DNA of 63,165 nucleotides, counting the filler. It is 15 parts of 15 records of this genome, joined end to end, with 100 filler letters (N's around TTAATTAATTAA, not from the genome) between each part and the next. Parts side by side here need not be neighbours in the genome. Positions count along the whole stretch, not along the records: positions 24,624 to 30,082 come from SRR7504441_89217; 14 more parts are not named here. The stretch is one strand, 5' to 3'. A model generated the notes under the pieces. It was not told the DNA's origin. It ran no database searches and saw only the letters and a program-made list of their open reading frames with translations. Shown here piece by piece: positions 3,220 to 46,100 of the stretch. The stretch's first letter is position 1; each line of letters begins with the position of its first letter. A program made the position numbers and the translations under genes.

Positions 3220-3628
3220 GCCACCGCCCGGTCCCGGCAGCTCTGAATCAGCGCCCTGATCTGCTCATTCTGCCCATCCGCCGCGCCGCTCCAAGCCGCC
3301 AGCAAGCTATTCATTAGACCCATGGACTGGGAGGACGAGCCGAGCACGAACTGGTGCGGGGCGTAGCCCACCTTGCCCAGACTGCGGCCAGCCATCACAG
3401 TCTCAGACACCCACCAGCTTGGGCGGCGCACCAGTACATCTCGGATCCCATCAGGCTGGAGGCTTTGGCTTTGCGCCACCAATTCTGGTCGTCGTCGATG
3501 CTCACGGCACCGGACGAGAGCCCGCGGCTCCTGGCCACAGCACCGCACCGCACGATGCGCAGCATTTCTGAGTCCGTTATAAATCCGGCGGCGTGCCGAG
3601 AGCGCAGCCGAGCACAGCCACTGCCGAG

Positions 3629-6307: not shown

Positions 6308-6780
6308 AGTACAGTACCTCTTACTTAGTATACCGCTTGTACCTCAAGTGAAGTGATTGATTTAGTTGTGCAATCAAGATATATGTATAGACATGCGTAC
6401 AGTTGGCCCTCCCTGGTGGAAGAATTAAACCCCATATGTGTGTGATCCGACCGCGCTACAACGGACAACCGCGCTACAAAGACGACAGGCAGCTCGCGCT
6501 CATCGTGCGTNNNNNNNNNNNNNNNNNNNNNNNNNNNNNNNNNNNNNNNNNNNNTTAATTAATTAANNNNNNNNNNNNNNNNNNNNNNNNNNNNNNNNNN
6601 NNNNNNNNNNGATTTGCGTGCAATGGCAAGGCGGCCTGCGGAGCAGATGGCGTGGTAGGGCAGGTGCCGGCCTGATCTGGGGATGCCGGGGATGGAAATC
6701 GTGTAGATCAAGCATGATATGAACCTAGCATGGTACTTATGAATACTTTAGCCGGTAGTATTATCAAGTACCTTAAGGTA

Positions 6781-8697
6781 TCATTTGGGACGTAATGCAT
6801 ACAACAGCCGCTTCACGTGTCCGCGCTTGACACCAATCTGGACCAATTCCTCTTTGGACAATTGAGCCAGTGCTTCAAGATCGTCGAAGCCGTTCTGGAT
6901 CAACAGCGTGTGGTAGCCTTTGGAAACCATTTTGGGTCCGATCAATTTCTTGAGCTGAGCTTGAAACGTCTTTGGCGCGCCTTGCGTACTTGAACTGCTA
7001 GCACCCGCTTCATCGGCCGGCATGCCCCATCCCCACATCTCCTGGAAGTGCTTTGGCTGTGTCTTTAACCGATATTCCTCCGGCTCCATCCGCACAGCTC
7101 GGTCAGTGTTGACCCCCGAGCCGCCGCATTTGTACTCTCGATACCGCAGGGCAGCATTGTTTATTCGAGGCACCAGGTTGCAAAATAGCCACGAGTTGGT
7201 GGCCGGTATTCCGTGCTGAGGCTGCGTCTTCCAGTCCAGACCGCCGAGGAAGTCTGCTGGGGGCTCTGCGAGCAGAGGCTTGTCGCACTCCAGGAGTGTG
7301 CCGAGCACAGGATCCTTTTTGTTCCAGTACCAGCGGTCCCTCATATAGTAGATCTGGCAATAGTGGAGGAAGACTGGAGGGGCGTCACTCCGCACCAAAA
7401 AGTCTTGCAGATGGCAGGCGCCTTTGTGCGAGAGTGTTGTGCTGCTTTTAGACTTTGACTCGAACATCCCGTTATTCGACAGCAATCGTTGAATCAGAGG
7501 CCAGCCCTCGCCCGAAATGTCGCCACGGGACACCATGTAATGATCGAGCCGCGTGGCGCTAATTTTATGATAGAGAGCAGCGGTCGAGTAGGAGAGCTGT
7601 TCGGCAAGCAAGTCACCCATCTTGCGCTTGTGGTCATAGGTCCTCTGATACTCTTTCACAGTGAACAGAAACCATGTCGGCACCATCATCCGAAGGTCCT
7701 CCCTGTGTATAAACCAGGGAGGCCCGAGCGAGTACTTGCCCCATGCATCCTTAAAGCTGAGCTGATCACACGCCTCCGGATCGCCGCTGTCCGGACCATG
7801 CTGGCAGATCCCCGAGTGCGCGGACAGGTACACCAGCCGGCCAATCCCGTAGTACTGCCCGACCATCTTGCCGCGCGCGACTGTGTCCGAGTCCGGGCCG
7901 AGCGGCGGCCTCTTTGCCCGATATTCCTCTGGCGGAACATGAAACCTTTCAGCCAGCTCGTGGAAAGCGGGTTCCAGATCGTACTCAGTCTGTAGCCTGG
8001 GCAGATCCTGCACCTCCCGCTTGGGCCCGATGCTCGTGCTCAGCGGCCGGAGGAATACAAAGTCGGGGTCCAAGATCGCCACCACGTCCTCGTCCACCTG
8101 CGCCTGCTCCAGCCAGTGCCGGATCCCGAGCGGCCGGTTGAGCACCCGATACCTGTCCGGAGTATCCTTCTGGATCAGGATCTTATCGTAAAACCCGAAA
8201 TCGTCCGGGTCATCATACGGATCCGGTGCGAAGTGCGCCCTGGCGTTAGGGTACATGTGGTTGAGCTCCTGCCGCACTTGGGCGCGATAAGCCGGCTCCT
8301 GCTTGCAGCCGCACACGATCTGGGTGATCGGGGCGGTCTCGCCCACCTCGCGGGCAGAGTTGAGCAGCACTTTGGCCTGCCAGTTGTTCCGCAGCTCGCA
8401 GTCGGTGGTGAAGATGATGTGCATCTCATCGTTCGCCGCCGCTGTCGGTTTGTCCGACGACAGCACCGCCGCTGTTGGTTTGTCTGACAGCGCCGCGGCT
8501 GATTCCTGCTTGGCTGCGACTGCCTCCCATGCCGCGACCGCGGGCGCGTGTGCGCTCTGAGAGATGACCGCGGGCGGCCGGCAGCTGCTGAGCAGGAAGA
8601 CCACCAGCCCCCCGAAGCATCCGCCGGCCACGAATATCACCGGTCGGGTCGCCTGCCGGGCGAGCCCGCGGAGGCTCCTGCCCGCCAGCGACTTCAT
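6781..8697 (-). CDS. Peptidyl-serine galactosyltransferase / Hyp-arabinosyltransferase-like glycosyltransferase with C-terminal SAM domain
   Basis: Type II TM anchor; IIFTTDC...WQ, NRPLGIRHWL, ILDPDFVFLRP (DxD), FLHYCQ. The C-terminal NGFDDLEALAQLSKEELVQIGVKRGHVKRLL is SAM-like. Confidence 0.8.
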   Translation of the reverse strand: MKSLAGRSLRGLARQATRPVIFVAGGCFGGLVVFLLSSCRPPAVISQSAHAPAVAAWEAVAAKQESAAALSDKPTAAVLSSDKPTAAANDEMHIIFTTDCELRNNWQAKVLLNSAREVGETAPITQIVCGCKQEPAYRAQVRQELNHMYPNARAHFAPDPYDDPDDFGFYDKILIQKDTPDRYRVLNRPLGIRHWLEQAQVDEDVVAILDPDFVFLRPLSTSIGPKREVQDLPRLQTEYDLEPAFHELAERFHVPPEEYRAKRPPLGPDSDTVARGKMVGQYYGIGRLVYLSAHSGICQHGPDSGDPEACDQLSFKDAWGKYSLGPPWFIHREDLRMMVPTWFLFTVKEYQRTYDHKRKMGDLLAEQLSYSTAALYHKISATRLDHYMVSRGDISGEGWPLIQRLLSNNGMFESKSKSSTTLSHKGACHLQDFLVRSDAPPVFLHYCQIYYMRDRWYWNKKDPVLGTLLECDKPLLAEPPADFLGGLDWKTQPQHGIPATNSWLFCNLVPRINNAALRYREYKCGGSGVNTDRAVRMEPEEYRLKTQPKHFQEMWGWGMPADEAGASSSSTQGAPKTFQAQLKKLIGPKMVSKGYHTLLIQNGFDDLEALAQLSKEELVQIGVKRGHVKRLLYALRPK

Positions 8698-8781
8698 CGG
8701 CCCTGCCCGACTGCCCGGCTCCGAATGAAAGCTTCGGCGACGAGCCGGAGATCAAACGGAATCAGCTCATCATAGCGAAAC

Positions 8782-9720: not shown

Positions 9721-10397
9721 GCCGGGATGTGCGCACGGCGTGATTTGCACTGTAGAGCTACGTATACAATTACTGATGTACAATACCTGCGAGGGTCCGG
9801 CTATACACGCCGCAGAGCCGACTCAGCGACCGACTAATCTTAAGCTAATGTGTCGATCAAACAATTTCTTTGCCATATAGTAAGTAAGTTATTTAATAAG
9901 TAGTAACATACGTGCAACAGTATGCGGCCGGCAGACCCGCAGTTGGGCTGCTGCTGTGTCGGGGGAGGGCCCGAGGAGGGCCGGCTACAGCCCATCGTCG
10001 TTCCTCTGGAACAGCCGGTGCGCCCGGCTAGCGTCGCAGATGCCAAACGCGACGGCCCGGACGCAGCGCTCTATCCTGGCCCTGGGGCTCTCCCAGAACT
10101 CGACACAGCAGGCAGCGATCTGCTCGGCCGCATAGCCCGGGCACCGGCACCGGGTCTCGTTCACCAGCGACTCGACCACCGAGCTCACCCCTGTGCAGCA
10201 CTCGAGCCACCAGCGGGCCGGCAGCGGGAGCGAGCCTGACCGGTCGGTCCGGTCAAGCGTCTCGTATTGGTCCGGCCGGGCGCGGAGCTGGACCCACNNN
10301 NNNNNNNNNNNNNNNNNNNNNNNNNNNNNNNNNNNNNNNNNTTAATTAATTAANNNNNNNNNNNNNNNNNNNNNNNNNNNNNNNNNNNNNNNNNNNN

Positions 10398-14080: not shown

Positions 14081-14214
14081 NNNNNNNNNNNNNNNNNNNN
14101 NNNNNNNNNNNNNNNNNNNNNNNNTTAATTAATTAANNNNNNNNNNNNNNNNNNNNNNNNNNNNNNNNNNNNNNNNNNNNCCAGCTCATTTCGCAACGGA
14201 AGTCGATAACCGAC

Positions 14215-18156: not shown

Positions 18157-18283
18157 CTCGCTCTTGTGATTCAGCTCACCAACNNNNNNNNNNNNNNNNN
18201 NNNNNNNNNNNNNNNNNNNNNNNNNNNTTAATTAATTAANNNNNNNNNNNNNNNNNNNNNNNNNNNNNNNNNNNNNNNNNNNN

Positions 18284-22786: not shown

Positions 22787-24523
22787 CTAGGCGCCCCGGC
22801 TGATATTGAGCATGTACACTAGCTCGTTCGGCCGAGACGGTGGGGCGTCTGCAAAGAAGCGCATGGTGAGACTCTCGGCACCCGACACCTCGATGCTTGA
22901 GTAGCCGAACGAGTCAAAGCGCCATCGTGACCATGCTGGTGGGTAGCCAACTGGGTATGGCTCAGTCGGGAATTTGGTGAGACTCTGGCCGCCGTTGCCA
23001 ACTACAGCGTGGATGGGAGCTCCGTAGCCACCAGCAGCAGGCACAACGCACGAGCCATTGATCAGAGGGCAAGTCACTTCGGCGTTGTGCACGTGGCCCC
23101 AGAGACATAGATCCACCTCGTGCTGCACCAGCACATTCTCCACGTCAGGCCACCACGACCCGTCAGCGAGATCGTATCCGCTGGCGTTCGATGTCGACGA
23201 GTACATCGGGCGATGTCCCATCACGATCACCCACGGTGTCAACGAGCGCTGCACCGCCTGCAAATCCTTCTGGATGAAGCTCAGCTGCGCCGAGCCGGCC
23301 GCCGCGCTCATCTCTGTGTCCATCATGAGAAAATGGACGGGGCCTTGCTCGAATGAGAACCAGCCTGCATCTTGCCTGTGCGACGGCGTCGGCATCCGAA
23401 ATCGGGCCTGAGTGGGGATGCCGCACTCCCCACCACTGTCGCTGCCTCCGATGGCGTTCCCGCTTCCGGGGTAATCCCTCTCGTGGTTTCCTTGGCCTAT
23501 CATATACGGCGTGGAGCTGGCGAGCGGCTCGATCTGGCTCATGAAGAAGTCCCACTCCGTCTCATATCCAGTGGCGTAGGCCAGATCGCCGATGTGCACC
23601 ACAACGTCGCTCTCAGTAGCGGGGGAGGCTGCTGCGAGTCGGGCTAGCGTGTGTGCCCCAGGTGGCGAGGATTTGCCTGTGTGTACCTCCCCGTCGCGTG
23701 GGCTGAGCGCCACTGGGACACTCCCTGGGCAGCCCCACGGATGTACTGCGCCGGTGTAGGTATCTATCGCAAAAGGCTCCATCCAATGATACTGCGCACC
23801 GTCGGTATAACTTTCCCCAACATCAGCCAGCACTGTTACACGCAGCTTCGCTGTTGCAGAGGGCGGGATCGGCGCACTGAAGGAGTGCTCCATGGACCAA
23901 CCCATGCTGTGCGAGCCTACGACATAGTACACTGTGCTGCCGGGGGCGAGGCCGTTGATGACCGCATTGTAGAACCATGGGGTATCCCACCAACCATGTG
24001 ATGTAGCTGGCGGCCCACACAGGTCTTCCTTGCTGTAGCTGGCCGGCGTGGCGGAGGCATTGCCAGTGTACTGCCCTGCCCTCGGGCCCCAGCGCACAAC
24101 TGCCTCAGCAGTGAGCAGAAACGATTCGAATTGTACACGCATCTCACTGTGTGAGCCAGTAAGCGCCAGATGCAGATGCCGTGGCGCGTTCGGGCTGCGC
24201 ACCTGTGTTGGTGCCGAACTGGTGAGATGGATTGGGTAGCTGGTTCCATTAGAGAACAGCGCAAAGATGAGTGGCTGACGGACTGCCTCGAGCCTGAACT
24301 TGGTCGAGCCGGACTGCTGGGTGATCGGCTTCCACTTGATCGGAGAGCTGGCCAGCCACGGCGGGTTGGCGCAAGGCCACGCCTGCGGCCCGATGGGAGT
24401 CAGGTCCGAGGAAGCCGCGAACACCCCGACCCAGGCCGACAAGTGCTGAGCTTGCTCGCAGTGGCTGTCCTGAGTGCAAATGTACTCGCTGGTATTGCGG
24501 GCGAGCTCCTCGGGTGGGATACC
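22787..24523 (-). CDS. Purple acid phosphatase (nucleotide pyrophosphatase/phosphodiesterase type), 5'-partial
   Basis: Metal ligand blocks ADVG, HIGDLAY, GNHE, GHRPMY and GHVH, plus DSGGECG and an FN3-like N-terminal domain. Confidence 0.93.
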   Translation of the reverse strand, partial: GIPPEELARNTSEYICTQDSHCEQAQHLSAWVGVFAASSDLTPIGPQAWPCANPPWLASSPIKWKPITQQSGSTKFRLEAVRQPLIFALFSNGTSYPIHLTSSAPTQVRSPNAPRHLHLALTGSHSEMRVQFESFLLTAEAVVRWGPRAGQYTGNASATPASYSKEDLCGPPATSHGWWDTPWFYNAVINGLAPGSTVYYVVGSHSMGWSMEHSFSAPIPPSATAKLRVTVLADVGESYTDGAQYHWMEPFAIDTYTGAVHPWGCPGSVPVALSPRDGEVHTGKSSPPGAHTLARLAAASPATESDVVVHIGDLAYATGYETEWDFFMSQIEPLASSTPYMIGQGNHERDYPGSGNAIGGSDSGGECGIPTQARFRMPTPSHRQDAGWFSFEQGPVHFLMMDTEMSAAAGSAQLSFIQKDLQAVQRSLTPWVIVMGHRPMYSSTSNASGYDLADGSWWPDVENVLVQHEVDLCLWGHVHNAEVTCPLINGSCVVPAAGGYGAPIHAVVGNGGQSLTKFPTEPYPVGYPPAWSRWRFDSFGYSSIEVSGAESLTMRFFADAPPSRPNELVYMLNISRGA

Positions 24524-24757
24524 NNNNNNNNNNNNNNNNNNNNNNNNNNNNNNNNNNNNNNNNNNNNTTAATTAATTAANNNNNNNNNNNNNNNNNNNNN
24601 NNNNNNNNNNNNNNNNNNNNNNNCCCCCCCCCCCCCTGACCCACTAAAGTCTTACAAAGATCATGAAGGAATTACTTGTACAACTTAGTATCATATGTAA
24701 TAATTAACCACCAGTTCCAAGCGCTATTGACCGGTGACCAGCACCACTTACAAGTAG

Positions 24758-27700
24758 CTAGAAGCAGCCGCTGTTGTACTGGTCCCAGTTCCACTCCAGC
24801 GCCTCCCTCATCGGACTCTCGCGCTCATCGAGCTTTGGCAGGAAATAAACGTTCATTCTCTCAAGAAACCTTCGAGCGTAAAACCCGGGAGGAGCAGACG
24901 AAATGCTCTTCTTATCCGCTCGCATCACAAACGTCTGTAACCCACCGGTTAATTAACGGAAAATAACGGCCAGCCAAAGCGTGCTGTGCGGGCGGTTATT
25001 TTTAAGCTACTGGTAAGCACCTTGAAGAAGCGTTCTGCGCTCTTATTCCAGTTGTATCTGTACCCCAACAGTCAGCCCTACTAAGGGGTAGTGCTATGGA
25101 GCACTTTTGTGAAATGTCTATGATCCCGAAACAATAATAATGCTGCTCCTCCCCCAGCTGCGGGTGCCGCCCTTTGAAACAAGGATACCTGCACCCATTG
25201 TCACCCCGCCCCCGGCGGCAACCGACCTATCCCTCCGGCCTGCTAGCTTCTCCTGATACAGCGATTCCAGCTGCGGCGTGTACCCAAATCTGAGGCCAGA
25301 TCTCTCAACTGATGATTACAACGGACTAAAAGCGTGTCACCGGGCCACTAGCATGCTGTAATCCATGACGCCATGCTGCGCCAGAAACCTACGCGCTCAC
25401 TCAGCCCCGCGCCCGATGCTCGGCTGGATCACCTCACATCCTCAAAGCACTGCGTCATCAACTCCTCCTTGTCCTCCCGACCAAGCACCACAGCGCAATT
25501 ACTCATCGCCTCACCCGAGAAAGACTCATCTTCCGTTGGCGTGCTCCCATAATCGTCCCAGTAGTCTGCGTCGAGCAACGTACCGTGCCGCTCCCCTGGG
25601 CTGTGTCTTTCCCTACGATTGAACGTCGAGCCCTGCCACCAGTCAAACCCCGCCGGTTGGAATCGGTGCCTTTAAGTCATATTTCTGTAGCAGTCCGACG
25701 CTCGTCGGCGTGACGTTGCCCATCACAATAAAACCAAATTCTTTCTGGGCGTCCCGCATCTTAATTGTGTAAAGTCTGACTCAGCAACTCATCAGCTGAG
25801 GTTGTTATCATTACGAATGCTGTTACCCGTAGATCTTGAGTAAAAGTGAGTGCGGATGAGCTAGCATGAACTCAGTGTAGGAGCTGTACCCCGGGCAGTC
25901 AGCAATTTTGCCGTTATATTAACGATAATTGAAAGAAGAAGATGACTAATAATAAGGCGGCACCTGGCGAAAGAGGCCACGAAATCGAACTCCGAGTCTG
26001 TCATCAGCTTCACCTTGCCGCCCCCTCAACCCCCTGAACCGCCAGCCGCCCACACCAGGTGCCGCGAGTCGTGCGTGATGTACAACGGCATCCCCGACTT
26101 GCCTCCAAGATTAAACCGCTCGACCATCTGAATCACTTGCGACTGAGTTGTCCGGAACGACGACAAATACATCTGCTCACCGAATCAATTAACATATTAT
26201 CTATCCCGCGCACCTGATCCGCCGGCTCGATCCCGCGGACGTCGTTCAGTGTCGCCTTGCCGCCCGGGAGGGTCTCGACTTCAGACCACCGAAGCTCCTC
26301 GGTTGTGCGCTCAATTGGCGTTTGGTTAGAGGAATCTGCGAGGAAGTGCATTCGAAGGTTGTAGAACTTAGTGGCCTGGACGGCGGCGAACATGTACATT
26401 GGGCGGTACCTGCACACTCCCGATTAGGCAGGTGTTAAGCTATGGCATTTCCTTATTCGGCAGGTGTTAAGCTATGGCATGCCCTAATGAGGAAAGGTGT
26501 GTTACATCTCCTTGAGTGAGTAGAGCTTCTGCAGCTCCACGTGCAACCCCTCCTCATCCAGCCTATCCCCCACACTCTTCAGCACCCCGCCTCCTGCCAC
26601 TAACTCACTGCATCGTCAGCCGCTGGTTGCTCATCTCTTCCGATCCCAAGCTGCTACTCAGGAGAGCCGGATGAGACCCGGTGCTTTCTCCTATCTCGGC
26701 AATCTCTTCCGTGAGGCGGTCGATTTGCATCTGCAGATGCTGCAAAACGCCTCAGCCACAATATCGCTTAATTAACACATTTGTCCTAATCAGGCAACAG
26801 TCTATAGCTTAACAGCGCCTTCCTAATCGGGAACGCACCTGGCACAGCTTCTTCTGCGGATGCTCCGCGTCGCCGTCCTCCGGCCAATACAACCGCTGCC
26901 CGTCGTTATTGCCTAATTAGGAAGGTGGGACGTCACCTGCATCGCCGGGTGCAAGTGCTCAAGACTCGTAAAGTACTGACAAAACGGCAACGCGTCGCGC
27001 AGCGAGCAAAACTTGCTGTACCACAGCGCTCATTGCGTGCTGCCATACACACGCACCTGCAGCGGCCGGCGCGCTGGCCTTGGGTTTGGTCAAAGAGGGT
27101 CATGTCCCGTAGCCGACACACTTTCTCTATCCCATCGCCCACCTGCCCAGACCGGAGGCTTAATAAAATGGTGACACCATATTACAGAGGAACTCACCAG
27201 TCTGACCACTTCGGCTCTGAGAAAATAATCATTTGTCTGTTGGTAGCTCTCATTCTCAAGCCGAGATTTGAACCTGCAGAGGCCCGTTGCCTAATTAGGC
27301 AATTAGGGACGTCACATGTGCCCCTCCAGCCGTTTCCTTGCCCGAGTGGTCGGCGGGCTGTTGAGTGGAGCTCCCAAAGACATCCCAGTCACCCGCCGCG
27401 ATGACTGACTGCACAAACCCCCCGTGAGCTCAAATGATTCGAATTAAATGATGCTTATCATTATCGTAGCAGCCACCTGGCGCGGCCAATGAAAGGCTCA
27501 GATAGCCCTCTCTCCGGATCTGTGTCGGGGTCTTCTGGGCCGGGGCAGCAAAGCTCGACCACTCGCTCGTGCGCTACTAAGTACGCATACCTGGGTGGGC
27601 ACTCATCAGATAAAATATAATTGATGAGCAATACTTGAATCTTGTGAGCACACCAGGAGCGTAGGGGATCCACAAGAGCATGTGCAGCAGCGAACGCGTC

Positions 27701-30020
27701 ACCTGCGGATTAATTGAGTGTTAAGCTGGGATTTCCGTTATTCTAACGGACCATCATGAGTGAGACGATAATGTATATTGAGGGCACGGTGCATGCCGAG
27801 TAATCCAGCGCCAACGCCATGGCCATAACTCCGATACTCACCTGTTGGACGCTCAGCGCTCGAGCAATCAATTAGTGATTAGATCACCCAAAAGACGCCG
27901 TGAATCACCACAAATTTCTTTGAAAAGTCAAGCGTCTGCAAACCGTTAATTAATCAATAAATAATCCGTAATTAAATTGCCTGGACACGTGAGCTCTGAG
28001 AGAACTGGAAGCCTGCAACCGACATTCAGTCCGTTAAAGTCCGTTATTAATTGAGAGCTACCGAGGTCCAGCACAGCAACGGAGTGCTGCCAGACCCACA
28101 GCGAGTAGAGTACAATCGCCACCACCGGGAAATAAATAAAAAATGCGTTGGTGTAATTGAAAGTCCCAAAGAACGAGCCCTGTCCGCCCTCAAATCTCCC
28201 GAATCCGAATTCAAATCACCGTGACAAACTCGCCCGTGCTGGTGTCAAAATCCCTGTCGCTCAGCGTCCGAGCGTACCTGCCAGTTCCGTTGTTTTCGGT
28301 TGGCCAACGGATTTTCACCAGCAAAACATGAATTGTGAGAGCCCTTCGAGAGGCGAATTTGAGGTCCGAAACTCACCAAAAGTCTCTCCGACCTGTCAAA
28401 GTCGCTCCCAACGGCTGGCGGTTGGGGATAGGCACCATGCTGTAGAGCAGCAGGAAGCTGTAGGACCCGGCCACCCATAGCGCCACGCTCACATAGTACG
28501 GAGTCGAATTCTTGGGCCGAAACGGATTCCGAACATCCGAGATCAGAGCATGCGACACACTGAAATAAAAGCCCAGAGACGCCACCCATCCGCAGTGAAA
28601 GAACGACGAGTAGACGAAGCAATCGTTGGAGTGCCCGGTGAGGTACCATACCACGATCGTCAGGTACATAATCGTCTCACTTCCGATCATCCCGCAACAC
28701 ATGTCGAAACAGACCCGACGCTGCTCCTTCTTGGACAGAAACCAGGAGAAAAGTAACGGCAAATTGATCACCAGCGCGATGAAACAGGCGATACAGTACC
28801 ATCGTGCCGCGTTGTGCGCGTGGTCGGCGAATATGTCGTTGGTGATTTGAAACGCAAACGCTGCTGTTGGTTGGGCGTCGCAGTCAGAGCAATTTAGAAT
28901 AGACTCCGGCAAAGCTCGGGCGTTGAACGTGACAGTGCTCGGGCCTGCCGCCGCAACGGTCAGTCCGTTGGCAGTCGGTTGGGATGATTAAATGAGAGTT
29001 AACCTGTGTACGGGCACGTCTGGAAAGTCCCCGACATCGCCGTCATATCCACAAGCACCTGTCGGTTGGATTCTATTTATAGCCAATGTCCGTTGGGGCG
29101 CACCGCGGTCGGGTGCAGCCCGGTGTAGTAGTCGCACCAGAACGCCGGCTGGTCCTCGCCGGGTTTCACAAACTTCCTCCGCGACGGAGTCGACGACAAA
29201 TCGGAGCTCGAGACATTCCCGTAAACGTCGGTTGAATACGGCCGGACCACAACGTTCTCGCTGCCCCAACCGTCAGCCCTCTCCCAACGGATTTCCGTTA
29301 CCGGGCGAACCCCCAACCGCCCACGTGCTCGGCCCAGCTTGCCCAGTAATTATCGGGTGAGTCCCGCTGCTCAAAGAACAGCGCTCCCGTCATATCCGAG
29401 CCGCCCACCTCGATCTGCCCAAACAGCGCCGAGATTGCGGTTATGCACTCAACGTCCTGCAGGTTTCCGTTGTACGCGCTCCCGTCCGTCAAAACCCAAT
29501 CGGCCGTCCCATTCTGGGCCGTCTGCGCCCGCCGGAGCGACAGCCCCAGCGCGCTCAGCCTGTCCGTTGCCGTTACGCCGATTGCCGTTACCCGGGCGGA
29601 CCGCTCGGGGTAGCTGAGTCCGTTGGGGTCCGGCAGGTTGGCGCACGGGTTACAAACTGACAGCTCGAATCCCGCCCCGCCGGCCAGCTCGAGCTGCCGT
29701 TGGCGATCAACGGCCGTGGCCGCCGGTTGGGGATTGCCTGGAAGACCACGTCCGACCACTGGTCCCGCATCCGCGTGATCCGCCAGGCCTCCCCGCACCC
29801 CAGCCCCCACGGGTTCACATGCGCACTGCTCCCTCCACTGGCCACCGAGTACCTGCCTCAACGGTCAACGCCCCATCCCCGGCCGGCCGCGCCTGGGCCC
29901 GGCGGCCGCGGTGGCCGCGTTGTTGAGCCCCGGGCAATCCGGGGCCACCGTGCCCCCCGCGCTGGTCGGCCAGAGCGCCAACAGCACGACCACCGCCGCC
30001 AGCCGCTGCTGTGGCCACAT
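24758..30020 (-). CDS. GPCR-PIPK: signal peptide + ectodomain + 7TM receptor + phosphatidylinositol phosphate kinase; about 31 introns
   Basis: Hand-spliced: MWPQQRLAAVVVLLAL signal; TM helices from 28912 down; linker LRAEVVRL|VGDGI; PIPK motifs GGKSG, HL|VKLM, LLLKIYG|LY, FIVMGNV, YDLK|GS, FLAQHGVMDYSML, FGIIDISQ|KYNWNKSAERFFK, ISSAPPGFYARRFL; stop at 24758-24760. Confidence 0.88.
26418..26492. repeat. Intronic tandem repeat GGCAGGTGTTAAGCTATGGCAT x2 (period 32) interleaved with CArG-like boxes
   Basis: Identical 22-mers at 26427-26448 and 26459-26480, next to CCCGATTAGG, CCTTATTCGG and CCTAATGAGG. Confidence 0.9.
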
Positions 30021-30303
30021 TTCGCACCAACGTTAAAACCAACGGACGGATGTGAAGAGCGATGGCGCCGAGGACGAGGAAGNNNNNNNNNNNNNNNNNN
30101 NNNNNNNNNNNNNNNNNNNNNNNNNNTTAATTAATTAANNNNNNNNNNNNNNNNNNNNNNNNNNNNNNNNNNNNNNNNNNNNCCCCGACCCGGCGCGCTC
30201 CCAACCCAGAGCCGAGTGCCGCGGCTCAGGCCAAGCTCCGCCCGGGGCTGATTCCGTTGCCAGCGAGCGATTGCCCAGTGGTGACGCGCGGGTCGCGGGG
30301 CAG

Positions 30304-33300
30304 ATGAACACCACCCAGCTGACCCAGGAGACGCTTCCGTCGCAGACCCAGTCGCAACAGCCCACCCAGCAGCCGGATGAGCGGGGGGGCGATGGCGGGT
30401 TCGGCGGGCCGGAGGGGCAAGAGCTGCAGTTTATGGAGTTCAACACGCAGGCGTCGCAGGGGTACGAGGCCTACTCTGGGTTCACGCAGCCGATCGGGGG
30501 CGAGTCCCAGCCGGCCAACTGGGCGCCGTCGCAGGGCACCGCCCACCAGATGGTCTCGTCGGCGATGGCGCCGATGGGCAACTACAACTTTATGGAGTAT
30601 CCGAGCAGCGGGCAGCCCGGCGGCGACGACGGCTGGGGGCCGCAGGACTCGGATACGATGCAGGCCGATCTGAGCGGGATCGACGACATCTTTGACGACG
30701 AGGCTGACAACAACGACGACGACCAGGGGCCGTACCGGTACGAAGAGCTACCCGAGTGGGCCTGCCGGTACTGCGGAGTGCACTCGCCGGCCTCATGTGT
30801 GCGGTGCGGCGACGGGATGTGGTTCTGCAACGGCAAACTCTCGGCCTCCTCGTCCATCTCGTGCATCGTCAACCACCTGGTTCGGAGCAAGCAGAAGGAG
30901 GTCTGCATGCGGCTGCGGGCTGCAGGCTGAGCTGGGGGCAGGTGACTCTGCACCAAGACTCACCGCTGGGCGAGACGGTGCTCGAATGCTACCAGTGCGG
31001 GACCAAGAACTCATTCCTGCTCGGGTTCATCCCGGCTAAGACCGACTCTGTGGTGGTGCTGCTCTGCCGGGTGTGTCTGGACTCCGGCAACCTGGCCGAT
31101 ATGAACTGGGACCTGAGCCAGTGGCTGCCGCTGATAGAGAACCGCTCGTTCCTGCCCTGGCTGGTCAAGCCGCCCACGGAGGCCGAGACCCGCCGGGCGT
31201 GGCACCCTTCGATCCAGCAGATCAATAAGCTCGAGGAGCTCTGGAAGAGCAACCCGAACGCTAAAATCGAGGACTTGGACCGTCCAGGGGTGGACACCGA
31301 GCCCGAGCCGGTGCTGATGCGGTACGAGGACGCGTACCACTACCAGAACGTGCTCGGGCCGCTCACCAAGCTGGAGGCAGACTATGACAAGCGGATGAAG
31401 GAGGCGCAGACCAGGGACGGAATCACTGTGCGGTGCGCTGGCTGGCTGGGCGCGGGGCGACCGGCAGGCCAGGTGGGACATGGCCCTGAACAAGAAGCAC
31501 GTGGCCTATTTCCTGATGCCCACAGCCGACAACGAGCTGCGGCTTGTGCCAGGCGACGAGCTCAAGCTGAGGTACCCTGGCGACCAGCACAGGGCTCCGT
31601 GGGAGAGCCTGGGGCACGTGACAAAGCTCAACATGAACGACGAGGTCTGCCTGGAGCTGCGCGACAGGCATTGCCCGACAGAATGCAACCACGGGTTTGT
31701 TGTGGACTTTGTTTGGAAGTCGACATCATTCGACCGAATGCAGACCGCCATGTGCACGTTTGCCACGCAGGAGACCTCAGTGTCCGGCTACTTGTACCAC
31801 AGGCTGCTCGGGCACGACGTGGAGCAGCAGACTGTGCGCGGCAACCTGCCCAAGCGATACTCGGTCCCTGGGCTGCCGGAGCTCAACCACTCGCAGGTGT
31901 CGGCGATCAAATCCGTGCTCCAGCGAGGCATGAGTCTGATCCAGGGCCCGCCCGGCACCGGCAAGACTGTCACCTCCGCCTCGATCGTGTACCATCTGGC
32001 CAAGATGGGCCAGGGCCAAGTGCTGGTGTGCGCTCCGAGTAACGTGGCTGTCGACCAGTTGGCCGAGAAGATCCACTCGGCTGGGATCAAGGTCGTGCGG
32101 CTTTGCGCCAAGTCGAGGGAGTCTGTGGGCTCGAGCGTGGAGTTCCTCACGCTTCACTATCTGGTGAGGCACCTGGACAAGCTGGTCGAGAGAGGCGAGC
32201 TGCACAAGCTCCAATTGCTCAAGGACGAGCAAGGCGAGCTGTCAGCATCGGACGAGAAGAAATACAAGAAGCTCAAGCGCCAGACTGAGGAGGAGATCCT
32301 CCACTCGGCAGAAGTGATCTGCTGCACCTGTGTCGGGGCGGGCGACTCCAGGTTGGCACAGCTCAGGTTCAGACAAGTTTTGATCGACGAGTCCACCCAG
32401 GCCACTGAGCCTGAGTGCCTTATTCCGATAGTGCTTGGGGCCAAACAGCTGGTGCTGGTGGGCGACCACTGCCAGCTCGGCCCAGTGGTCATGTCCAAGC
32501 AGGCGGCTCGGGCGGGCCTGTCCCAGTCGCTGTTTGAGCGGCTCGTGCTGCTCGGCGTCCGGCCGATCCGGCTCCAAGTGCAGTACCGGATGCATCCAGC
32601 CCTCTCCGAGTGGCCTTCCAACACATTCTACGAGGGCTCCCTCCAGAACGGGGTCACAGCCAGTGAGCGGATCCAGCACTTTGTCGACTTCCAGTGGCCA
32701 GTTCCGGACCGGCCGCACTTTTTCTACAACTCATTAGGCCAGGAGGAAATGTCAGCTACAGGCACTTCATATCTGAACCGGACAGAGGCAGCTAATGTCG
32801 AGAAAGTGGTGACTCAGCTGCTGCGGTGCGGCGCCGTGCCCGCGCAGGTGGGCGTGATTACACCCTACGAGGGCCAGCGTGCGTACATTGTGTCGTATAT
32901 GGCCCGGAACGCGGCGCTTCGGCAAGCGCTTTACCAGGAGATCGAGGTGGCCTCTGTCGACTCGTTCCAGGGCCGCGAGAAGGATTACATCGTCGTGTCG
33001 TGTGTGAGGTCGAACGAGCACCAAGGAATCGGCTTTTTGAGCGATCCACGCCGGCTGAACGTGGCCCTCACCCGTGCCAAGTATGGTGTTGTAATCCTGG
33101 GCAACCCAAAGGTGCTCTCCAAGCACCCGCTGTGGAACAACCTGCTCACCCACCTGAAAGACGGCGACTGCGTGGTCGAAGGCCCTCTCAATGACCTCCA
33201 GACCTCAAAAGTCCAATTCCACAGGCCGCGCTCGAATTATTACGCGCGGCGCTTCTTGCCAGGGGGTAACATGGACAGGCCGTCCAACTCGGATGACCAG

Positions 33301-33834
33301 AACGGCCCATCGCGCTCCACGCGCGAGAGTTCGAGCTACTACGACACCATGTCTCAGGGTTCACTCCCACCCCCCGGACCCAATTCCTTTGTGCCTGAGA
33401 CTGAGGTGTCGCGGCCTTCGTATGGATACCACCAGCGGCAGCAGCCTCGGGATCACGTGCATGCGAATGCAACAGCGCTCGGGTTTGTTGCGCCCGGCCA
33501 CTTTGAGGGCGTGCAGCCACCTCAGTATGGCGAGGGAGCATCCAAGCCGGAGTCGCAGAGGCAGCGGAAGAAGACTGCACAGGAGCAGAAGGAGTCACAG
33601 CAAGAGGAGCTGCGGCAGCAAGTCTCGCAGACAGAGGGTTACAGTCCGATGGACGGTTCTCTCATGTCGGGTGAGATGGACAACCTGACGCTCTCTGGGC
33701 TGAGCCAAGATTCATTCGACTTTAAGAGCCAACCGATGACTTTTGACTTCAAATCGCAGGATACGGCGGACGAGCTGATTGCGGCTGGGATGGGCAGCCA
33801 GCAGCTGGGCGACCTGGACCCGCCTGAGTTGTGA
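30304..33834 (+). CDS. UPF1: Regulator of nonsense transcripts 1 (UPF1 RNA helicase); introns 30901-30941 and 31433-31472
   Basis: CH zinc domain ([32 protein letters not shown]), [30 protein letters not shown] and [11 protein letters not shown]. Confidence 0.98.
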
Positions 33835-35249: not shown

Positions 35250-38200
35250 CTAATTGGCCCCGTGGCTTCCGATTCGAGTGTTTACATGATTGATGAACTT
35301 GATTGCCTGAGCCCGCATGGCACAATTCCAGGGCCGAGCTTGCATGTCCAACAGCAGATGTCGGGATCCAGCTTCCATCACAACATCAATCTCATCAACA
35401 AACTCGCCAAGTCGAATCAGTACACCACAGCCCTCCTCCTGAATATTTGCGCTGCTTGGATACGCCCACATTGCGCGTAGCACTGCAGTAAAGCCTCCTA
35501 ATTTCGCGACTGAAAGCGCATTGTTCTTGCGCTTTGCTGCGATTTGTCGCAGTGCAGCACAGCCTCTCTGTTGAGCCCTCCCATCGAGCATCAGTGTCTT
35601 CATTCCATGAACGATCCTCAGAATCTCGTTGTACGGCACCAGCAGATCAACTGTAGTGCTCATTGGCACGAACCGACTTGCATCACCCTCACCTTCACTG
35701 CAGGTAGCAGAGATGGAGAATTGATAGGTGGTCTCAGTGGTCAGGCCCTCCACCAAGTGTTGCCGGGCCTCAGGGCCCAAGGTGGTGACCTCCTGCAGAT
35801 TGCCGATTTCATCTTTCCGCCGCAAAATCATGTTGGTGACCTCCAGACCTCTCAGCTTGGGTGCTGACCAAGCGATAATGAGGCTCTCCTCAGTTGCCTT
35901 GATGAGGTAGGGCGGCCCTTGAATGCACTGCGGAGGAAGCTCAGCTGGTAGACTGACATCGAGCCGTTCAGTTCCACCGCCCGTCCCTTTGACGCTGGAA
36001 GCAGCCACATACATTTGATGGATCCTTATCGGAGGCACGTCCACGAAACTGTAGCTCACATGATCCGGAGGAAGCTGAACTTGAACCTCGTCAGCATATC
36101 CGGCATCAAATTCGTGCTCGACTCTATATGTCAGCGTCACACTCGTCAGAGGCATGCCACCGTCGTCCTTGGGCAGCTTCCATTGCACAACAAAGTCGGT
36201 CTTCCCTTGCGAAACGAGCACCAGCTCTGTGCATGGGCCCGGAACATTTGCTGCCAGTGTCTTCGCAACACACACTTCGGAGTACGGGGATGTGCCGACT
36301 TTGTTGTAGCAGTCTACACGGAATCTGAAAGCAGAGTCTTCGGGCAGATCGGTGATCTTGTGCCTGGTATTTGCCCAGTCCCATGTCTCCAGCTTTGACC
36401 ATCCTTGAGGCGACTCCAACTCCAGAGTGTACCCGAGGATGGGCGATCCGCACTCGTCATCCTGCAAAACACAGTCTGTTAGCCTGGCTCGCAGCACAAG
36501 AGGCACCTGGACGAGGCTCCACTGCACGCCTACTGTATGTATCCCAGCCTCCTGCTCCATACTTACTAGCGTGCTGGGAGCAATAGTTGGCGCGATCGGA
36601 GGATCTGTTTGGAAGACTGCCGTCTCGCTCCATTCTCCAGGACCTACCATGTTGATAGCTTGAACTCGGAACGAATAATCAGTCGCGGGCTTAAGTTTTC
36701 GGAGTTCAGGACCCGCCATCGCACCCTCGCCAAGTGTGTGGGTGACAAACCGCTCTGGCCATTGCACTGGCTCCCATTGTGACCCGTCTTCACTAAGCAT
36801 CTCAATGTTCCACAACTTAATCGGTCGCCCATTGCACGCCACCGTGTGCCAACCCAGAGCACCGAGTGCAAACCGTTCGGTGGATGCACACTCCACTGGT
36901 CCTGGCTTGTCAGGACAGCGCGCATCCAATGTGGCAAACTCGCTATCACTACTGGTGCAAATCCCCACAGAGTTAGTTGCTTCAACCTTGAAGCAATATT
37001 TCGTCTGTGCCTCGAGTCCTTCGACTGTGTGGCTGAACAGATGCTTGTTGTCTACTATCGTCTCCCAGCCGCCAGCGCTGATTGCGGGGCGGTAATGCAA
37101 GAAATACCCTGTTACAGGAGCACCGTTGTGGCACTCTGGAGCCTCCCAGATTATCTTCAGACTGTACAGCTCTCGGTGGTCCAGCTTTGGCGGCGGCAGC
37201 CCACTCGGTGCTTCCGGGTCACGGGTACAGAAGACGGAAGCTTCCGACCAGTCGCCGTACAGCTCGTGCCTTTGGCCACCAGCCAAAACGCTCCCGATGC
37301 ACTCGGCACGCACCGCAAACCTGTACTCGGTGCCTGCCTCGAGCCCCTCACACAGCCACCGCAGCGCCTTGGTCCCCGCCACGAGCGTCTCCCAGCCATC
37401 CTCCGGCCCATCCTCTGGCCGCATCCGGAGAGAATACCCCGAGACTTCGAGCCCGTTCGGCTTCCCGTGCTGCCACGTGACCGTAAGGCTATCCCGCTGG
37501 CTCTCAATTAGTGAGACAGCGGCCATCACATCGGGCGGGTCCGGCGCAGAGGTGGCAGCGTCCAAGAAGCAGGCGTCGCCGAGCCCTTTAGCGTTGGCCG
37601 CTCGGACCTCAAACTTGTAAGGCGTGTCTGCGGTGACAGGGAAGATCTCGCTCGGCCGCAGCTCAAACTGCACCCCTGTGTGCCCTTTGGCCACCGTCGT
37701 CCAAGGCGTGTCCATCTCCCGCCGGCACCGCACCTGATAACTCTCCACCTTGGCGCCATTCTCCACGCTGGGTGGCTTCCACTCGACATAGAGCACGTGG
37801 AACTCATCAGCAACACACAGCAGGTCTAACACGGGACCCGGCGTCGACGCCATTTTAGTTTGGAATTCAAACACGTCCGACACTGCGCTCGGGCCTGCCC
37901 TCGCTGTCAGAGCCAGCCTGCCTGCGGAGCACCGGCAGAGGAGAGGGCTTGCATAGTAAAGCAGTACTTGAGTCCAGGCTGCAGCTGTTCAACTTTGTAT
38001 CTATCGAGCTCTTTTGGGATCTTGATCTTGTTGTCTAGCGTGATATTGTGAAGCACATAGCCCTCAAGCGGGCAGCCGCGCTCCTCGGGCGGGTCCCACA
38101 ACACATCCAGCCAAGTATAATCGTGCCCACCTTGTGTCAGCTCCAGCGCGCATCGCACTTCCACCTGCGGCTGTGGGGCTGCAGCCGCTGCAGTCCCGCC

Positions 38201-43147: not shown

Positions 43148-46100
43148 ACATTGCAGCTCCATGTAGTCACGCCTGGCTGCTGTGCAAACTCTCGGACTCC
43201 CTGCTGCAACTTCTGCGACGCTCTGCTTAAGGCCTTCATTGGTGCTGTCGAATCGTGACCTTTCACTGTTTGCATACGTGAGGTGGCGCGGGTAATACCC
43301 AGCTGAGCCAGCCACAAATGTTGCTGCTTGGCAAAAGCAGGTGTTTGAAGAGTCTGGATCGGAACTGGGGCCACAGAAGATAGTTGCGGGCAGTATGCAA
43401 TTGAATCCGACACTCTCTCGAGGCGATCGGCCATCAATTGCGCCGCTGCAGCCTGAAACCCTCTTAAACAGCCTAAATCCTTCTCGAGACTGCTGGACGG
43501 ACGAGCTTCGAAAGACATTCTAGGGTCGCATGCAGCCTCTGGAGCAATGCATGACTGGAGCGTGCCTTGTAAATTTGGCTTCGAGGGACACGTCCATGTC
43601 GACGCATTAGTGCACTTGCCTAGAGCTTGCCGCGCCTTCTGCTCAGTCATGTTCGCTTTCCTCAGCCTATAGTGTGTGTGGACCACTTGAGCCTCCAGCC
43701 CAGAGACCCACTCCTGCAGCTGGTCTACTGTTTGTTCAGCAGCTTTAAGTTTGACTGCCATGGCTCTGGGTGTCATCTGGCCACTTTGAATGTGGAGGCG
43801 ATTCTTTCTCATGATCCAGGCGTTGATGTCGCGCTGCTCCATGCGCAGGTCCAGCGTGCGAACAGCAACTTCAAAGTTGTACAAAGGCTCCTCCACGGCT
43901 GCGCCCTGGTAGATGTCGGGTTGATAAACGACCTCATCATCGCCAAGAGCCTCAGATGCTTGCTTGGCAAAGCTGGCATACCGTTGAAGTAAGTCAGCAA
44001 ACCGTGCTGATGAGTCTTCAAACAGCTGCTGCGAGCATTGGGCAGATAGACTCACTGAAGGGATTGCCGCGAAGTGAAGTACCATTGGGCTTGAGCCTTT
44101 CATATCAGATGTTGCCAGTAGCGATTTCATGGCTACTTGCTGGGTTTGGTCCTCCCGGCACGTCCAAGAGGAAGCATTCAGCTCAAAAACCCTCTCTGGT
44201 CCAGGATAGGTTTCAGCCTTTCCGATCGACGAAGTGTTTTTAAGCCAGGCGCCAGCTTCTTTGATGGACAAAATAGCTCCATCGACGTGCTTGCCAGCCC
44301 GGCCCTGCAAGTCTGCCATTGCGCTGGACACAAGCGATTGCCGCTCTGCCGCATCTGTTTGGTTCTTCTCAAATAATTCGATTGCCGCCTTTGCGCGATT
44401 CATCGACAGAATGACCTCGTTAACTACTTCAGTGGGCGGCGCAGCAGCGAGAGCTTCGGACTGTTTTGCAGCAATCGCTAACACTTGCTGTGCATACAAG
44501 CGTGCAGCCTCAGCCTCCAGCTCCAGTGCACACTTGGGTGTCAGGCCTGGCAGCTTGGCTCGCACCCTGGCAGCGCTGGGAGCATACATAGCTGTAACAC
44601 CCTTGCCATCACCGATCAACACCCCGCGATTCAGGCCACGTTTGCCATGAATTGGAGGTGTCGATTCGAACCCGAGGATATGTCCGGATTGAAGCATGAC
44701 TGACATCTGTGCTTGTATCGCTGGCTTAGAGGTGCAAGTCCAACCAGCCTTGTCAGCGCGCCATGTCAATTTCTCGGACCATGGTGCCCACCCATCAGTG
44801 CGCTTCCCTCGTAGCCTAACTTCATACAGCTCGCCTGGCATCAATCCTGAGATTTCCTCATCAACAACCGTGACGCTGATGTTTTTGTCCTGAAAGGTAC
44901 GTGTGCTCAGGGAACTTCCATCAATCCGCTGCCACTCAATCTGATGCTGGGTGTAGTCCTTCTGGCTGACGTTCCAAGCCAGCCTGATTGACCCTGGCTT
45001 GACAGGCGGTAGCTGGTTAGGTAGTGGAATAGTGTTGGTATCATCTGGTTTGCTTGGATGAAACCCTTTTAGCTTGTCGATCTCCCGGTTGAGGGCCTGC
45101 TTGACTACACTCTGGCTGCCCAAGAGGGAGTCCTTATCTCTGCGCAATGCCTCAAGCTGCTCATCTTGGTCGGCCTGATTCTGCTTAGCTTGCTTGACCC
45201 TCAAGCTCGCGACCATTTCGGCCCTGCGTGCGTCTTGGAGGTGCTCGTCGGCAACATCAAACGCAGCCTGCAGGTCGTCGACCTTGAGACCAGTCGCAGT
45301 GTACTTAATGAGCTTGCTGTGGTACTTGGCCTGCCGCTCCTTCTGCAACAAATCCGATTCTATGCGCCCCTCTTCTACTCGCCGATTCACTAGATTATTG
45401 ATCTGCTGTGTCACTACCTGCTGCTTTAGACGCAGCTGCTCGACCTCTTCTCGTTCGTAATCAACTTCCAAGTTTATTCGTGCCAGCTCAGGGCCAAGAG
45501 CATCCATGCCGGGAGTTGAAGGTGTGTTGGATCCAATCAAGTATCCAGCTTTGATCTGAATCTCGGCAGCCTTTGATTTCACTTGTTGGGCCTGCACAGT
45601 ATGTTTTCTACTTTGAAGGAAAGATATCTTTCGAGAGGTATTCTTGATGCGCTGAACCAAGTCAGCCAATTGCTCGCTCAGCACTGCCTCTTGGCCCTCC
45701 GCCTCGCCTTGCTTGCGGACAGCTGTGGCCACCTCTTGCTGCTCAGGCTCGTCACTGACCAGCTGTGCCGTCCTCTGGAGTGCAGATGCTGTGATTGCAC
45801 TTTGGTTTTGCGCTGCAGTAAATTTGTCCTCGAGACCACGGTAGTGCTCTTGTAGTTGCTGCCTCTTTTGGGTAGCATCTTCAAACTTTGTGCGGCGCTC
45901 AGCTAGCATCATAGCCTTCCAGTCCAATTGCTCGGTCACAGCTTTGCTTGAGTTGCGAACAACCTGATGCTGTGTTTCTAATACCCTTTTTACCTTTGCT
46001 GCCTTGGCTTCCCACGCAGCTTGGACTGTCTCAGCGTCTGCAAGGACAGCCTTGGCCTTATGTACCACACTCTCCTGCAGCTGTAATTCCTCTTTGAGCT

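Follow-up and report, generated by a model that had tools for sequence, protein, structure and literature searches.

The stretch of DNA analysed here (the window, 63,165 nt) is made up of 15 contigs of 3.1–6.2 kb, joined by 100-nt artificial spacers that consist of N runs around TTAATTAATTAA. Since the joins are artificial, gene order and linkage across the spacers are uninformative. One contig, at 24624–30082, is taken up nearly entirely by a gene on the minus strand whose predicted protein carries, in order, a signal peptide, an ectodomain of about 290 residues, seven hydrophobic helices, a linker with the motif LR(x)9GI, and finally an entire PIP5K domain. These are the parts of a GPCR (G-protein-coupled receptor) fused to a phosphatidylinositol phosphate kinase (PIPK), preceded by an extra N-terminal domain. 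We put the probability that ectodomain, seven-helix domain and kinase form a single fused gene, as judged from the sequence, at about 0.8.

Gene model and coding evidence

The stop-to-stop list of open reading frames (ORFs) on the minus strand yields only fragments of the receptor gene, as a preliminary description of the sequence had noticed, and fragments are all that ORF-based annotation picks up from genes so dense in introns. The same description had assumed about 31 introns of the GT-AG or GC-AG type, the removal of which would give one continuous frame. The frame is borne out, with a slightly higher count: 30 GT-AG and 3 GC-AG introns of 33–99 nt (median 46, total 1672 nt) are removed to give 1196 residues, and the 33 introns in 3.6 kb of coding sequence amount to 9.2 per kb. 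The model was curated frame by frame, assembled by coordinates, and then tested independently. Gene models from mechanical dynamic programming contradicted one another in their stop-free paths and passed over genuine exons, and were kept solely as a source of splice-site candidates. As several different stop-free paths were found, a stop-free path by itself is weak evidence.

Codon usage and alignment to contiguous homologues both agree with the curated frame. Only long ORFs from the remaining contigs went into the codon log-odds table, and its score is positive in frame in 33 of the 34 exons. For the PIPK exons the summed log-odds are +75.6 in frame versus −141.4 (shift +1) and −107.8 (shift +2); for the ectodomain exons they are +49.9 versus −85.2 and −26.7. 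Each of exons E01–E06 is positive in frame and outscores both of its shifted frames.

The homologues were reached through the kinase. Three unspliced read-through frames, with X in place of stops, were compared with Pfam; one matches PF01504 (PIP5K) at 46.9 bits (E 2.8e-12; the cut-off is 27), and the other two have no Pfam match. A search with a region of the matching frame retrieved P0003 and P0004, and a search with P0003 retrieved 335 PIPKs, 120 of them listed. P0003 is a metagenomic PIPK of 320 residues, a contiguous ORF on a 1004-nt record, and scores 421 bits against the spliced kinase domain (67% identity over 266 columns of the tree alignment). P0005, at 123.6 bits, is with P0125 a shorter isoform of a receptor of Telonema subtile (EP00656 P038809; P0126, 1229 residues). 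A junction was counted as supported when it sits in a gap-free 10-residue alignment to P0003 or P0005 with a score of at least 10, which is the case for 12 of the 33 (I06, I09, I11, I13, I25–I29 and I31–I33). The Telonema sequence is a transcript and is therefore uninformative on introns. P0003 is contiguous where the window gene has nine introns, and its record may be genomic or transcript-derived. The C-terminus of the spliced protein lies within a few residues of the ends of both homologues.

The coordinates of all introns are listed in Table 1. The GC-AG intron I28 is confirmed by three contiguous homologues, and the GC-AG class is therefore real in this gene. An earlier placement of I31 at 25204–25158 was ruled out, P0003 showing that the stretch so skipped is coding. 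I21 was chosen over its 84-nt alternative on donor and acceptor consensus only. The 5′ parts of I03 and I04 are similar to each other. The tandem duplication in I23 lies at 26418–26481, with a 32-nt unit and 88% identity, and a related 25-nt copy is found in I14 at 27703–27727. The most likely reading is one nuclear gene, from a GC-rich eukaryote with introns of about 40 nt, for a type-IV PIPK or GPCR-PIPK.

Table 1. Positions of the receptor gene, its domains and introns, and of other features of the window. Homologue values are residues identical, or alignment score, around the junction.
Feature	Position	Strand	Remark
Whole coding span	24758..30020	-	34 exons, 33 introns, 1196 residues; ATG at 30020, stop 24760-24758
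Signal-peptide-like N-terminus	29952..30020	-	residues 1-23: one Arg, 11-residue hydrophobic core, small residues
Ectodomain-coding region	28799..29951	-	residues 24-312, exons E01-E07 with I01-I06 between
Seven-helix domain	27658..28798	-	residues 313-575, exons E07-E15
Cytoplasmic linker	26410..27657	-	residues 576-814, exons E15-E23
LR(x)9GI motif, LR + AEVVRLVGD + GI	27128..27221	-	27221-27198 plus 27142-27128, split by I18
PIP5K catalytic domain	24761..26409	-	residues 815-1196, exons E24-E34
I01	29853..29898	-	46 nt GC-AG; frame logic only, exon-1 frame hits a stop
I02	29694..29737	-	44 nt GC-AG; frame logic, no homologue support
I03	29560..29601	-	42 nt GT-AG; in frame and stop-free, hence optional and beyond proof by frame
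I04	29261..29310	-	50 nt GT-AG; frame logic; alternative boundaries 32 or 41 nt
I05	29059..29103	-	45 nt GT-AG; in-frame stops; frame logic; joins ectodomain bulk to exon 6
I06	28945..29003	-	59 nt GT-AG; gap-free to Telonema homologue, score 23, 4/10 identical
I07	28393..28435	-	43 nt GT-AG; frame logic, read-through leads to a stop
I08	28344..28376	-	33 nt GT-AG; in frame and stop-free, hence optional; 2-residue gap in homologue alignment
I09	28278..28318	-	41 nt GT-AG; Telonema homologue 7/10 identical across FCW
I10	28180..28219	-	40 nt GT-AG; frame logic
I11	28013..28061	-	49 nt GT-AG; Telonema homologue score 14
I12	27936..27986	-	51 nt GT-AG, 31% G+C; frame logic with stops; 2-residue homologue gap beside junction
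I13	27842..27887	-	46 nt GT-AG; Telonema homologue score 22
I14	27703..27751	-	49 nt GT-AG; frame logic; 26 nt in common with I23, 12 nt with I04
I15	27566..27634	-	69 nt GT-AG; frame logic; tried alternatives hit stops
I16	27429..27476	-	48 nt GT-AG; frame logic
I17	27274..27310	-	37 nt GT-AG; frame logic; palindrome CCTAATTAGG; 13 nt in common with I20
I18	27143..27197	-	55 nt GT-AG; inside LR(x)9GI; Telonema 6/10 identical, one edge gap
I19	27016..27056	-	41 nt GT-AG; frame logic
I20	26896..26936	-	41 nt GT-AG; frame logic; contains CCTAATTAGG
I21	26740..26838	-	99 nt GT-AG; alternative 26834-26751 (84 nt) also in frame
I22	26563..26608	-	46 nt GT-AG; alternative acceptor 26575 gives 34 nt
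I23	26410..26505	-	96 nt GT-AG; 32-nt tandem duplication
I24	26176..26213	-	38 nt GT-AG; alternative acceptor 3 nt downstream
I25	26014..26055	-	42 nt GT-AG; P0003 8/10 identical, plus P0005
I26	25884..25963	-	80 nt GT-AG; P0003 6/10 identical, plus P0005
I27	25776..25826	-	51 nt GT-AG; P0003 10/10 identical, plus P0005
I28	25633..25669	-	37 nt GC-AG in YDLK/GS; P0003 8/10, P0005 6/10, plus P0004
I29	25389..25432	-	44 nt GT-AG; P0003 7/10 identical, plus P0005
I30	25302..25340	-	39 nt GT-AG; frame logic; 4-residue gap in both homologues, variable insert
I31	25189..25226	-	38 nt GT-AG; P0003 7/10 identical across junction
I32	25058..25104	-	47 nt GT-AG; P0003 7/10, P0005 5/10 identical
I33	24935..25020	-	86 nt GT-AG; P0003 5/10 identical, score 25; P0005 score 10
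UPF1-type RNA helicase gene	30184-33831	+	next contig; two GC-rich mini-introns, then 811-residue uninterrupted exon
UPF1 gene introns	about 30905-30945 (41 nt), about 31433-31472 (40 nt)	+	lacking the receptor gene's AACGG and TAATTA motifs
GH92 glycosidase	3572-6304	+	911-residue uninterrupted ORF
Purple acid phosphatase	22790-24523	-	578-residue uninterrupted ORF, cut by contig end
Ankyrin-HECT ubiquitin ligase	56498-58456	+	653-residue uninterrupted ORF
Protein kinase	1616-3118	-	long intron-free stretch
HPAT-like glycosyltransferase with SAM domain	6784-8751	-	long intron-free stretch
Long open frame, fibronectin type III repeats	35253-37988	-	912 residues
Long open frame, fibronectin type III repeats	43150-48018	-	1623 residues, spans entire contig
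Spacers	3120-3219, 6511-6610, 10298-10397, 14081-14180, 18184-18283, 24524-24623, 30083-30182		seven more

Kinase, linker and seven-helix domain

The spliced kinase domain is matched, at E ≤1e-3, by all 122 proteins compared, nearly all of which are PIPKs. In an alignment of 11 PIPKs the catalytic elements are intact, namely GGKSG in the G-loop, the VKLM Lys, YDLKGS, MDYSML, GIID and the Glu of AER in the activation loop. GGKSG, YDLKGS, MDYSML, GIID and PPGFYARRF had been named in the preliminary description and are all present in the spliced frame. The usual LKDxD reads LLDAD, again as had been remarked. The LLDxD form is found in 3 of 3 members of the clade to which the window protein belongs (the window protein, P0003 and the Telonema protein), whereas 8 of 8 other PIPKs have K. 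On this alignment, LLDxD is a trait of the subfamily and not a sign of decay, because all three clade members carry L and none of the eight others does. The activation-loop Glu, which marks PI4P 5-kinases, is conserved in 11 of 11 aligned PIPKs and would point to phosphatidylinositol 4,5-bisphosphate, PI(4,5)P2, as the product.

Searches with smaller pieces were less productive. Pfam comparison of 21 raw ORF pieces and of 20 exact exons gave 2 PIP5K fragments each and nothing else useful; the matches to DUF2070 (E 0.53) and YhdX (E 0.32) are at chance level and were discarded. In PDB sequence searches, a 66-residue kinase exon found no match, and a 40-residue kinase exon only a ribosomal protein (E 0.94).

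The linker motif had been placed, with an intron within it, at exactly the position where it is found. LR(x)9GI occurs as a single exact match, at residue 670. When the linker is compared with that of the Telonema homologue, only the neighbourhood of this motif is conserved, with a score of 52 that is reached in 2 of 300 shuffles. The exact motif is present in 3 of 12 relatives checked (P0007, P0039 and P0044). It has been reported to retrieve GPCR-PIPKs only (PMC5784254) and has been called diagnostic of them (PMC5784254, PMC12716839).

The multi-transmembrane (TM) region of the preliminary description resolves into seven hydrophobic segments at residues 309–574. With a 19-residue Kyte-Doolittle window, 4 of the segments reach at least 1.6 and 3 lie at 1.2–1.55; all seven fall within the 242 columns that align to GPCR-PIPK membrane domains, and a borderline eighth peak (1.20) at residues 605–623 is outside that alignment. 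Basic residues lie on the predicted inner loops, and the predicted topology exposes the N-terminal domain to the outside, with the kinase facing the cytosol. A Cys precedes TM3, RNPF follows TM3, and FCW stands in the second outer loop; the GPCR-PIPKs shown in Table S2 (PMC5784254) have matching motifs (Cys before TM3, (R/N)NPF and CW).

Direct comparison supports the same assignment. The local alignment of the seven-helix region to the Telonema protein scores 206, against 40.5 ± 6.4 for shuffles (z 25.8; 0 of 300 shuffles reach it), and phmmer gives 46.9 bits between the membrane region and P0005. Among the 122 proteins compared, only P0005, P0007, P0008 and P0016 match upstream of the kinase, and they do so in the membrane region and in colinear order. 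By hhalign, a profile of the window and Telonema membrane domains matches six GPCR-PIPK membrane domains at 98.8% (E 4.4e-17, 242 columns). P0007, P0008, P0044 and P0102 of these six match Pfam 7tm_2, Dicty_CAR or Frizzled; P0039 has no GPCR match, and the precomputed listing for P0016 gives PIP5K only. Helix composition can inflate hhalign scores; nonetheless, the columns that hold the conserved Cys, RNPF and CW line up. An Atlas feature search places exon 7 beside 7tm_2, Dicty_CAR and Frizzled clusters at 0.92–0.94, which serves as a lead only. Among 2192 candidates, longer proteins sought with the 204-residue membrane ORF gave none at E ≤0.001, and no relative came up when metagenome loci were scanned, once with the membrane exon and once with P0003. 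The membrane domain appears to be cAMP-receptor/secretin-like, with the usual cysteine pair between TM3 and the second extracellular loop. The identity of the gene as a GPCR-PIPK, first proposed from its motifs, is well supported by the PIP5K match, LR(x)9GI, the seven helices and the hhalign result. Coupling to G proteins is described as unproven for the whole GPCR-PIPK family (PMC5784254).

The ectodomain, its relatives and alternative readings

A signal peptide followed by a Cys-containing ectodomain of roughly 300 residues had also been proposed, and a hydrophobic start and about 290 residues are indeed found. Hydropathy peaks at 1.77 over residues 7–25, an in-frame stop lies 5 codons upstream of ATG 30020, and cleavage of the signal peptide is predicted. 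Before the first helix, the ectodomain has 9 Cys and 3 N-glycosylation sequons, and it is probably glycosylated. Its family is less apparent. No Pfam model matches it in the window exons or frames, even at E 10, and an exhaustive HMMER search of 1.84 billion representatives with the 188-residue ORF at 29301–29864 (E03 and E04 in frame, exon 2 out of frame) found no relative. P0001, the sole match of that ORF, is a repeat protein aligned in 5 stretches, mostly to the out-of-frame or intronic part of the query, and was rejected. The best PDB sequence match of exon 4 is an unrelated transaldolase (E 0.029). In the Atlas search, exon 4 falls among PLL-like beta-propeller lectins with a score of 0.95 and a recognition of 2118, below the mark of 2300; PF26607, PF03984, PF07938 or repeated blades were not found, and the beta-propeller lectin is a weak candidate for the fold. 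A likeness of exon 4 to the start of P0005 (RDSP...YWAS) was also dismissed as resting on an artefact prefix, shuffle tests being not significant. P0005 and P0125 begin with MCIRDS joined to different internal points of P0126, and the prefix, which is absent from P0126, looks like an artefact of truncated transcript ORFs.

The closest full-length relative among the matches listed, Telonema P0126, has the fused layout in one ORF. Like the window protein it has a signal peptide, an ectodomain (about 340 residues, 13 Cys), seven helices, a linker reading DYFLRAEVV.LV and a PIPK; it shares LLDxD, is similar in total length, and its C-terminus ends alike. It differs in that overall identity is 32% and that its LR(x)9GI reads GT in place of GI. 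The Telonema receptor is listed as a family member without description in PMC12716839. P0003 likewise carries LLDxD, with the kinase part only on record. In a kinase-domain tree of 57 rows (61 of 118 prepared rows were left out, and no named type II or III sequences are included), the window, P0003 and Telonema proteins form a clade with a support of 99, in which P0003 is sister to the window protein, also at 99. The clade lies outside a group of 45 soluble, MORN or EF-hand PIPKs (support 93).

The GPCR-PIPK family itself is already known and widespread: its distribution and LRxGI motif are treated in PMC5784254, and its seven-helix homology and presence in Telonemida in PMC12716839. Its described type-IV PIPKs, RpkA of Dictyostelium and PiGK/D1–D12 of Phytophthora, share with the window protein the seven helices, then LR(x)9GI and a C-terminal PIPK, as well as the Cys before TM3, (R/N)NPF after TM3 and CW in the second outer loop. 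They differ in being about 630–1000 residues long, with the PIPK starting at residues 260–512 (Table S2) versus about 815 in the window protein, in having LKDxD with Lys, and in that the parts of the source covered mention neither a signal peptide nor an ectodomain of this kind in them. Between TM7 and LR lie about 30 residues in the GPCR-PIPK examples compared and about 95 here. In the GPCR-PIPK literature covered, figure and PDF supplements not included, no member with both a signal peptide and a large ectodomain is described. The long ectodomain form thus appears to be new, and is shared with an undescribed public transcript. Together with that transcript, the window gene would belong to a divergent GPCR-PIPK subfamily marked by an N-terminal ectodomain, a long TM7-to-LR spacer and LLDxD. 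The general logic is that of adhesion, glutamate and Frizzled receptors, which also combine a signal peptide and a ligand-binding ectodomain with seven helices. However, no sequence or domain relation to them was found by Pfam or exhaustive HMMER, and the output here would come from a fused lipid kinase, in place of a G protein or in addition to one.

Several observations weigh against a single fused receptor of this kind. In the kinase, the basic pair of the activation loop is NK, in contrast to the KK or KR of the 10 other PIPKs in the alignment. In the tree, the clade stands adjacent to the other eight multi-TM PIPKs but is not firmly joined to them in one clade, with 2 label changes, a weak branch support of 65 and long branches. 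A profile check against Pfam, which the preliminary description had suggested for both halves, succeeded for PIP5K in the read-through frame, but the GPCR models have no direct match to the window exons or frames; the link to 7tm_2, Dicty_CAR and Frizzled is therefore indirect, via relatives. Likeness between the window and Telonema ectodomains is not significant, their score being reached by 450 of 1000 shuffles at standard gap costs and by 39 of 1000 at lenient ones, and Telonema therefore supports the architecture and not common descent of the outer domain. Junctions I01–I05 rest on frame logic and codon usage without homologue support. I01 is the only simple path from exon 1 into the coding frame of exon 2, and I01 and I02 both depend on GC donors. 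For I02, a GT donor at 29746 is an alternative, which gives 53 nt and loses 3 codons. Finally, I05 contains the octamer TATAAATA at 29074–29081 on the coding strand, some 30 nt upstream of the in-frame ATG 29046. The octamer may have arisen by chance, the intron being richer in A+T, or may be an internal promoter from which a shorter isoform of the receptor is made.

The octamer and the lack of homologue support at I05 would suit two adjacent genes in the same orientation. The first, from 30020 to about 29080, would encode a secreted protein with Cys residues, and the second a conventional GPCR-PIPK that starts at ATG 29046 with an outer tail of about 60 residues, as in most described members. 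Read-through of the I05 donor meets a stop after 9 codons, the octamer could serve as a separate promoter, and the PIPK construct of RpkA starts near residue 370 of 828. In the rows of Table S2 of PMC5784254, the helix bundle starts within the first ~20–215 residues and no member has a signal peptide plus ectodomain. Such a split, however, leaves about 35 nt between the stop inside I05 and the exon-6 ATG, there is no Met between exon 6 and the first helix, and I05 is a clean frame-keeping GT-AG unit that has CCAACGGAC/CCAACCGAC in common with I06 and motifs in common with other introns of the gene. The fusion is supported because P0126 has signal peptide, large ectodomain, seven helices, linker and PIPK on one transcript, and we consider two genes unlikely. 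Somewhat less probable still is that the fusion holds and the N-terminal model is partly wrong, with some of E01–E05 or their boundaries differing or a further 5′ exon past the contig end. Different search settings give different stop-free paths in this region, where two GC donors, an optional I03 and three possible boundaries of I04 meet; no homologue covers E01–E05, and the contig has just 62 nt upstream of ATG 30020. Yet E01–E06 all score best in their own frame, the signal-peptide-like start is preceded by an in-frame stop, and the GC-AG class is real in this gene. The extra N-terminal domain that had been proposed is thus supported indirectly, by codon usage and by the layout of P0126, and its exons, with those of the signal peptide, appear to be coding. 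We give very little weight to the idea that the gene is decaying or not expressed, or that its contig comes from another organism than the rest of the window, in which case the intron crowding would be uninformative on this genome. The assembly does consist of 3–6 kb contigs of unproven unity, and the motif content of the receptor contig is unlike that of the 14 others. Nevertheless, the frame is intact over 1196 codons with every catalytic motif kept, its codon usage agrees with the model built from the other contigs, and the UPF1 introns on the next contig are of the same size class, one of them sharing the donor start GTGCGC.

If the fused receptor works as its topology suggests, an external cue would be sensed by the ectodomain, the helix bundle or both, and would change the conformation of the bundle and linker. 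Through this change the tethered kinase could differ in its activity or in its access to the membrane, where it would make PI(4,5)P2 locally. No ligand is known for any GPCR-PIPK according to Table 1 of PMC12716839, and direct driving of the fused kinase by ligand binding is described as untested in the family (PMC5784254). The large-ectodomain subfamily has two members, the window gene and the Telonema transcript. Unlike in short-tailed members, the ectodomain could be expressed alone for binding screens, and chimeras could show whether an outside signal alters PIP2 synthesis. LLDxD and the long TM7-to-LR spacer can be used as marks in database searches for the subfamily.

Intron crowding and neighbouring contigs

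The neighbours of the receptor gene in the window carry uninterrupted exons of 500–900 residues, and the gene is an outlier in intron density. Given the UPF1 introns of 41 and 40 nt, one of which begins with the GTGCGC donor seen in the receptor gene, mini-introns are normal for the organism; 33 in one gene are not. The receptor introns have a G+C of 0.52, versus 0.57 in the exons. AACGG or CCGTT occurs at 14.35 per kb in the introns (24 sites, 15 of 33 introns), at 2.5 in the exons and at 1.35 in the other 14 contigs. The introns share YAACGG/CCGTTR, and some hold the palindromes CCTAATTAGG or TTAATTAA. Intron pairs with a score of at least 10 number 13 of 528, versus 1–4 in controls of non-overlapping exon pieces, and the shared blocks measure 10–28 nt. 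On folding, the introns have a mean z of −0.66 versus 0.07 for exon windows (Mann-Whitney p 0.0015). Twelve of the 33 downstream exons begin with GT, the frequency of the GT dinucleotide being 0.056. Target-site duplications at the intron ends show no excess, at a mean of 2.52 versus 2.51 in a mismatched-pair control. P0004, a 40-residue ORF on a 2103-nt ENA record, crosses the I28 site in YDLK/GS and stops 9 codons later, which suggests the genomic copy of a close relative that lacks the YDLK/GS intron and has another 9 codons on.

Intron families that spread by transposition, the introners or introner-like elements, occur in Micromonas, Aureococcus and fungi. The receptor introns resemble them in sharing sequence blocks and motifs and in folding slightly better than exon pieces. 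They differ in that their shared blocks are 10–28 nt and not full-length copies, and in the lack of target-site duplications above control; described introners are also far longer than the 33–99 nt of the introns here. The introns cannot be counted as introners on these grounds, and the other 14 contigs are without their motifs. Local intron gain, a branch-site-like motif common to the introns, or the two together could account for the pattern. That the gene is a local hotspot where mini-introns are born, by the spread of very short hairpin or palindrome units (YAACGG...CCGTTR, CCGTTAATTAACGG-like and CCTAATTAGG), is a doubtful though not negligible proposal; if it were true, these units would be the smallest introner-like elements known. 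Extreme local intron density beside intron-poor neighbours is a useful case for work on intron origin.

The other genes of the window are listed in Table 1, and a search of the window against Rfam gave 0 matches. A run of 13 C at 24624–24636, at the end of the receptor contig beside the spacer, is probably an assembly or sequencing artefact. The 1623-residue frame with fibronectin type III repeats has a third-position G+C of 0.54, below that of most other genes in the window.

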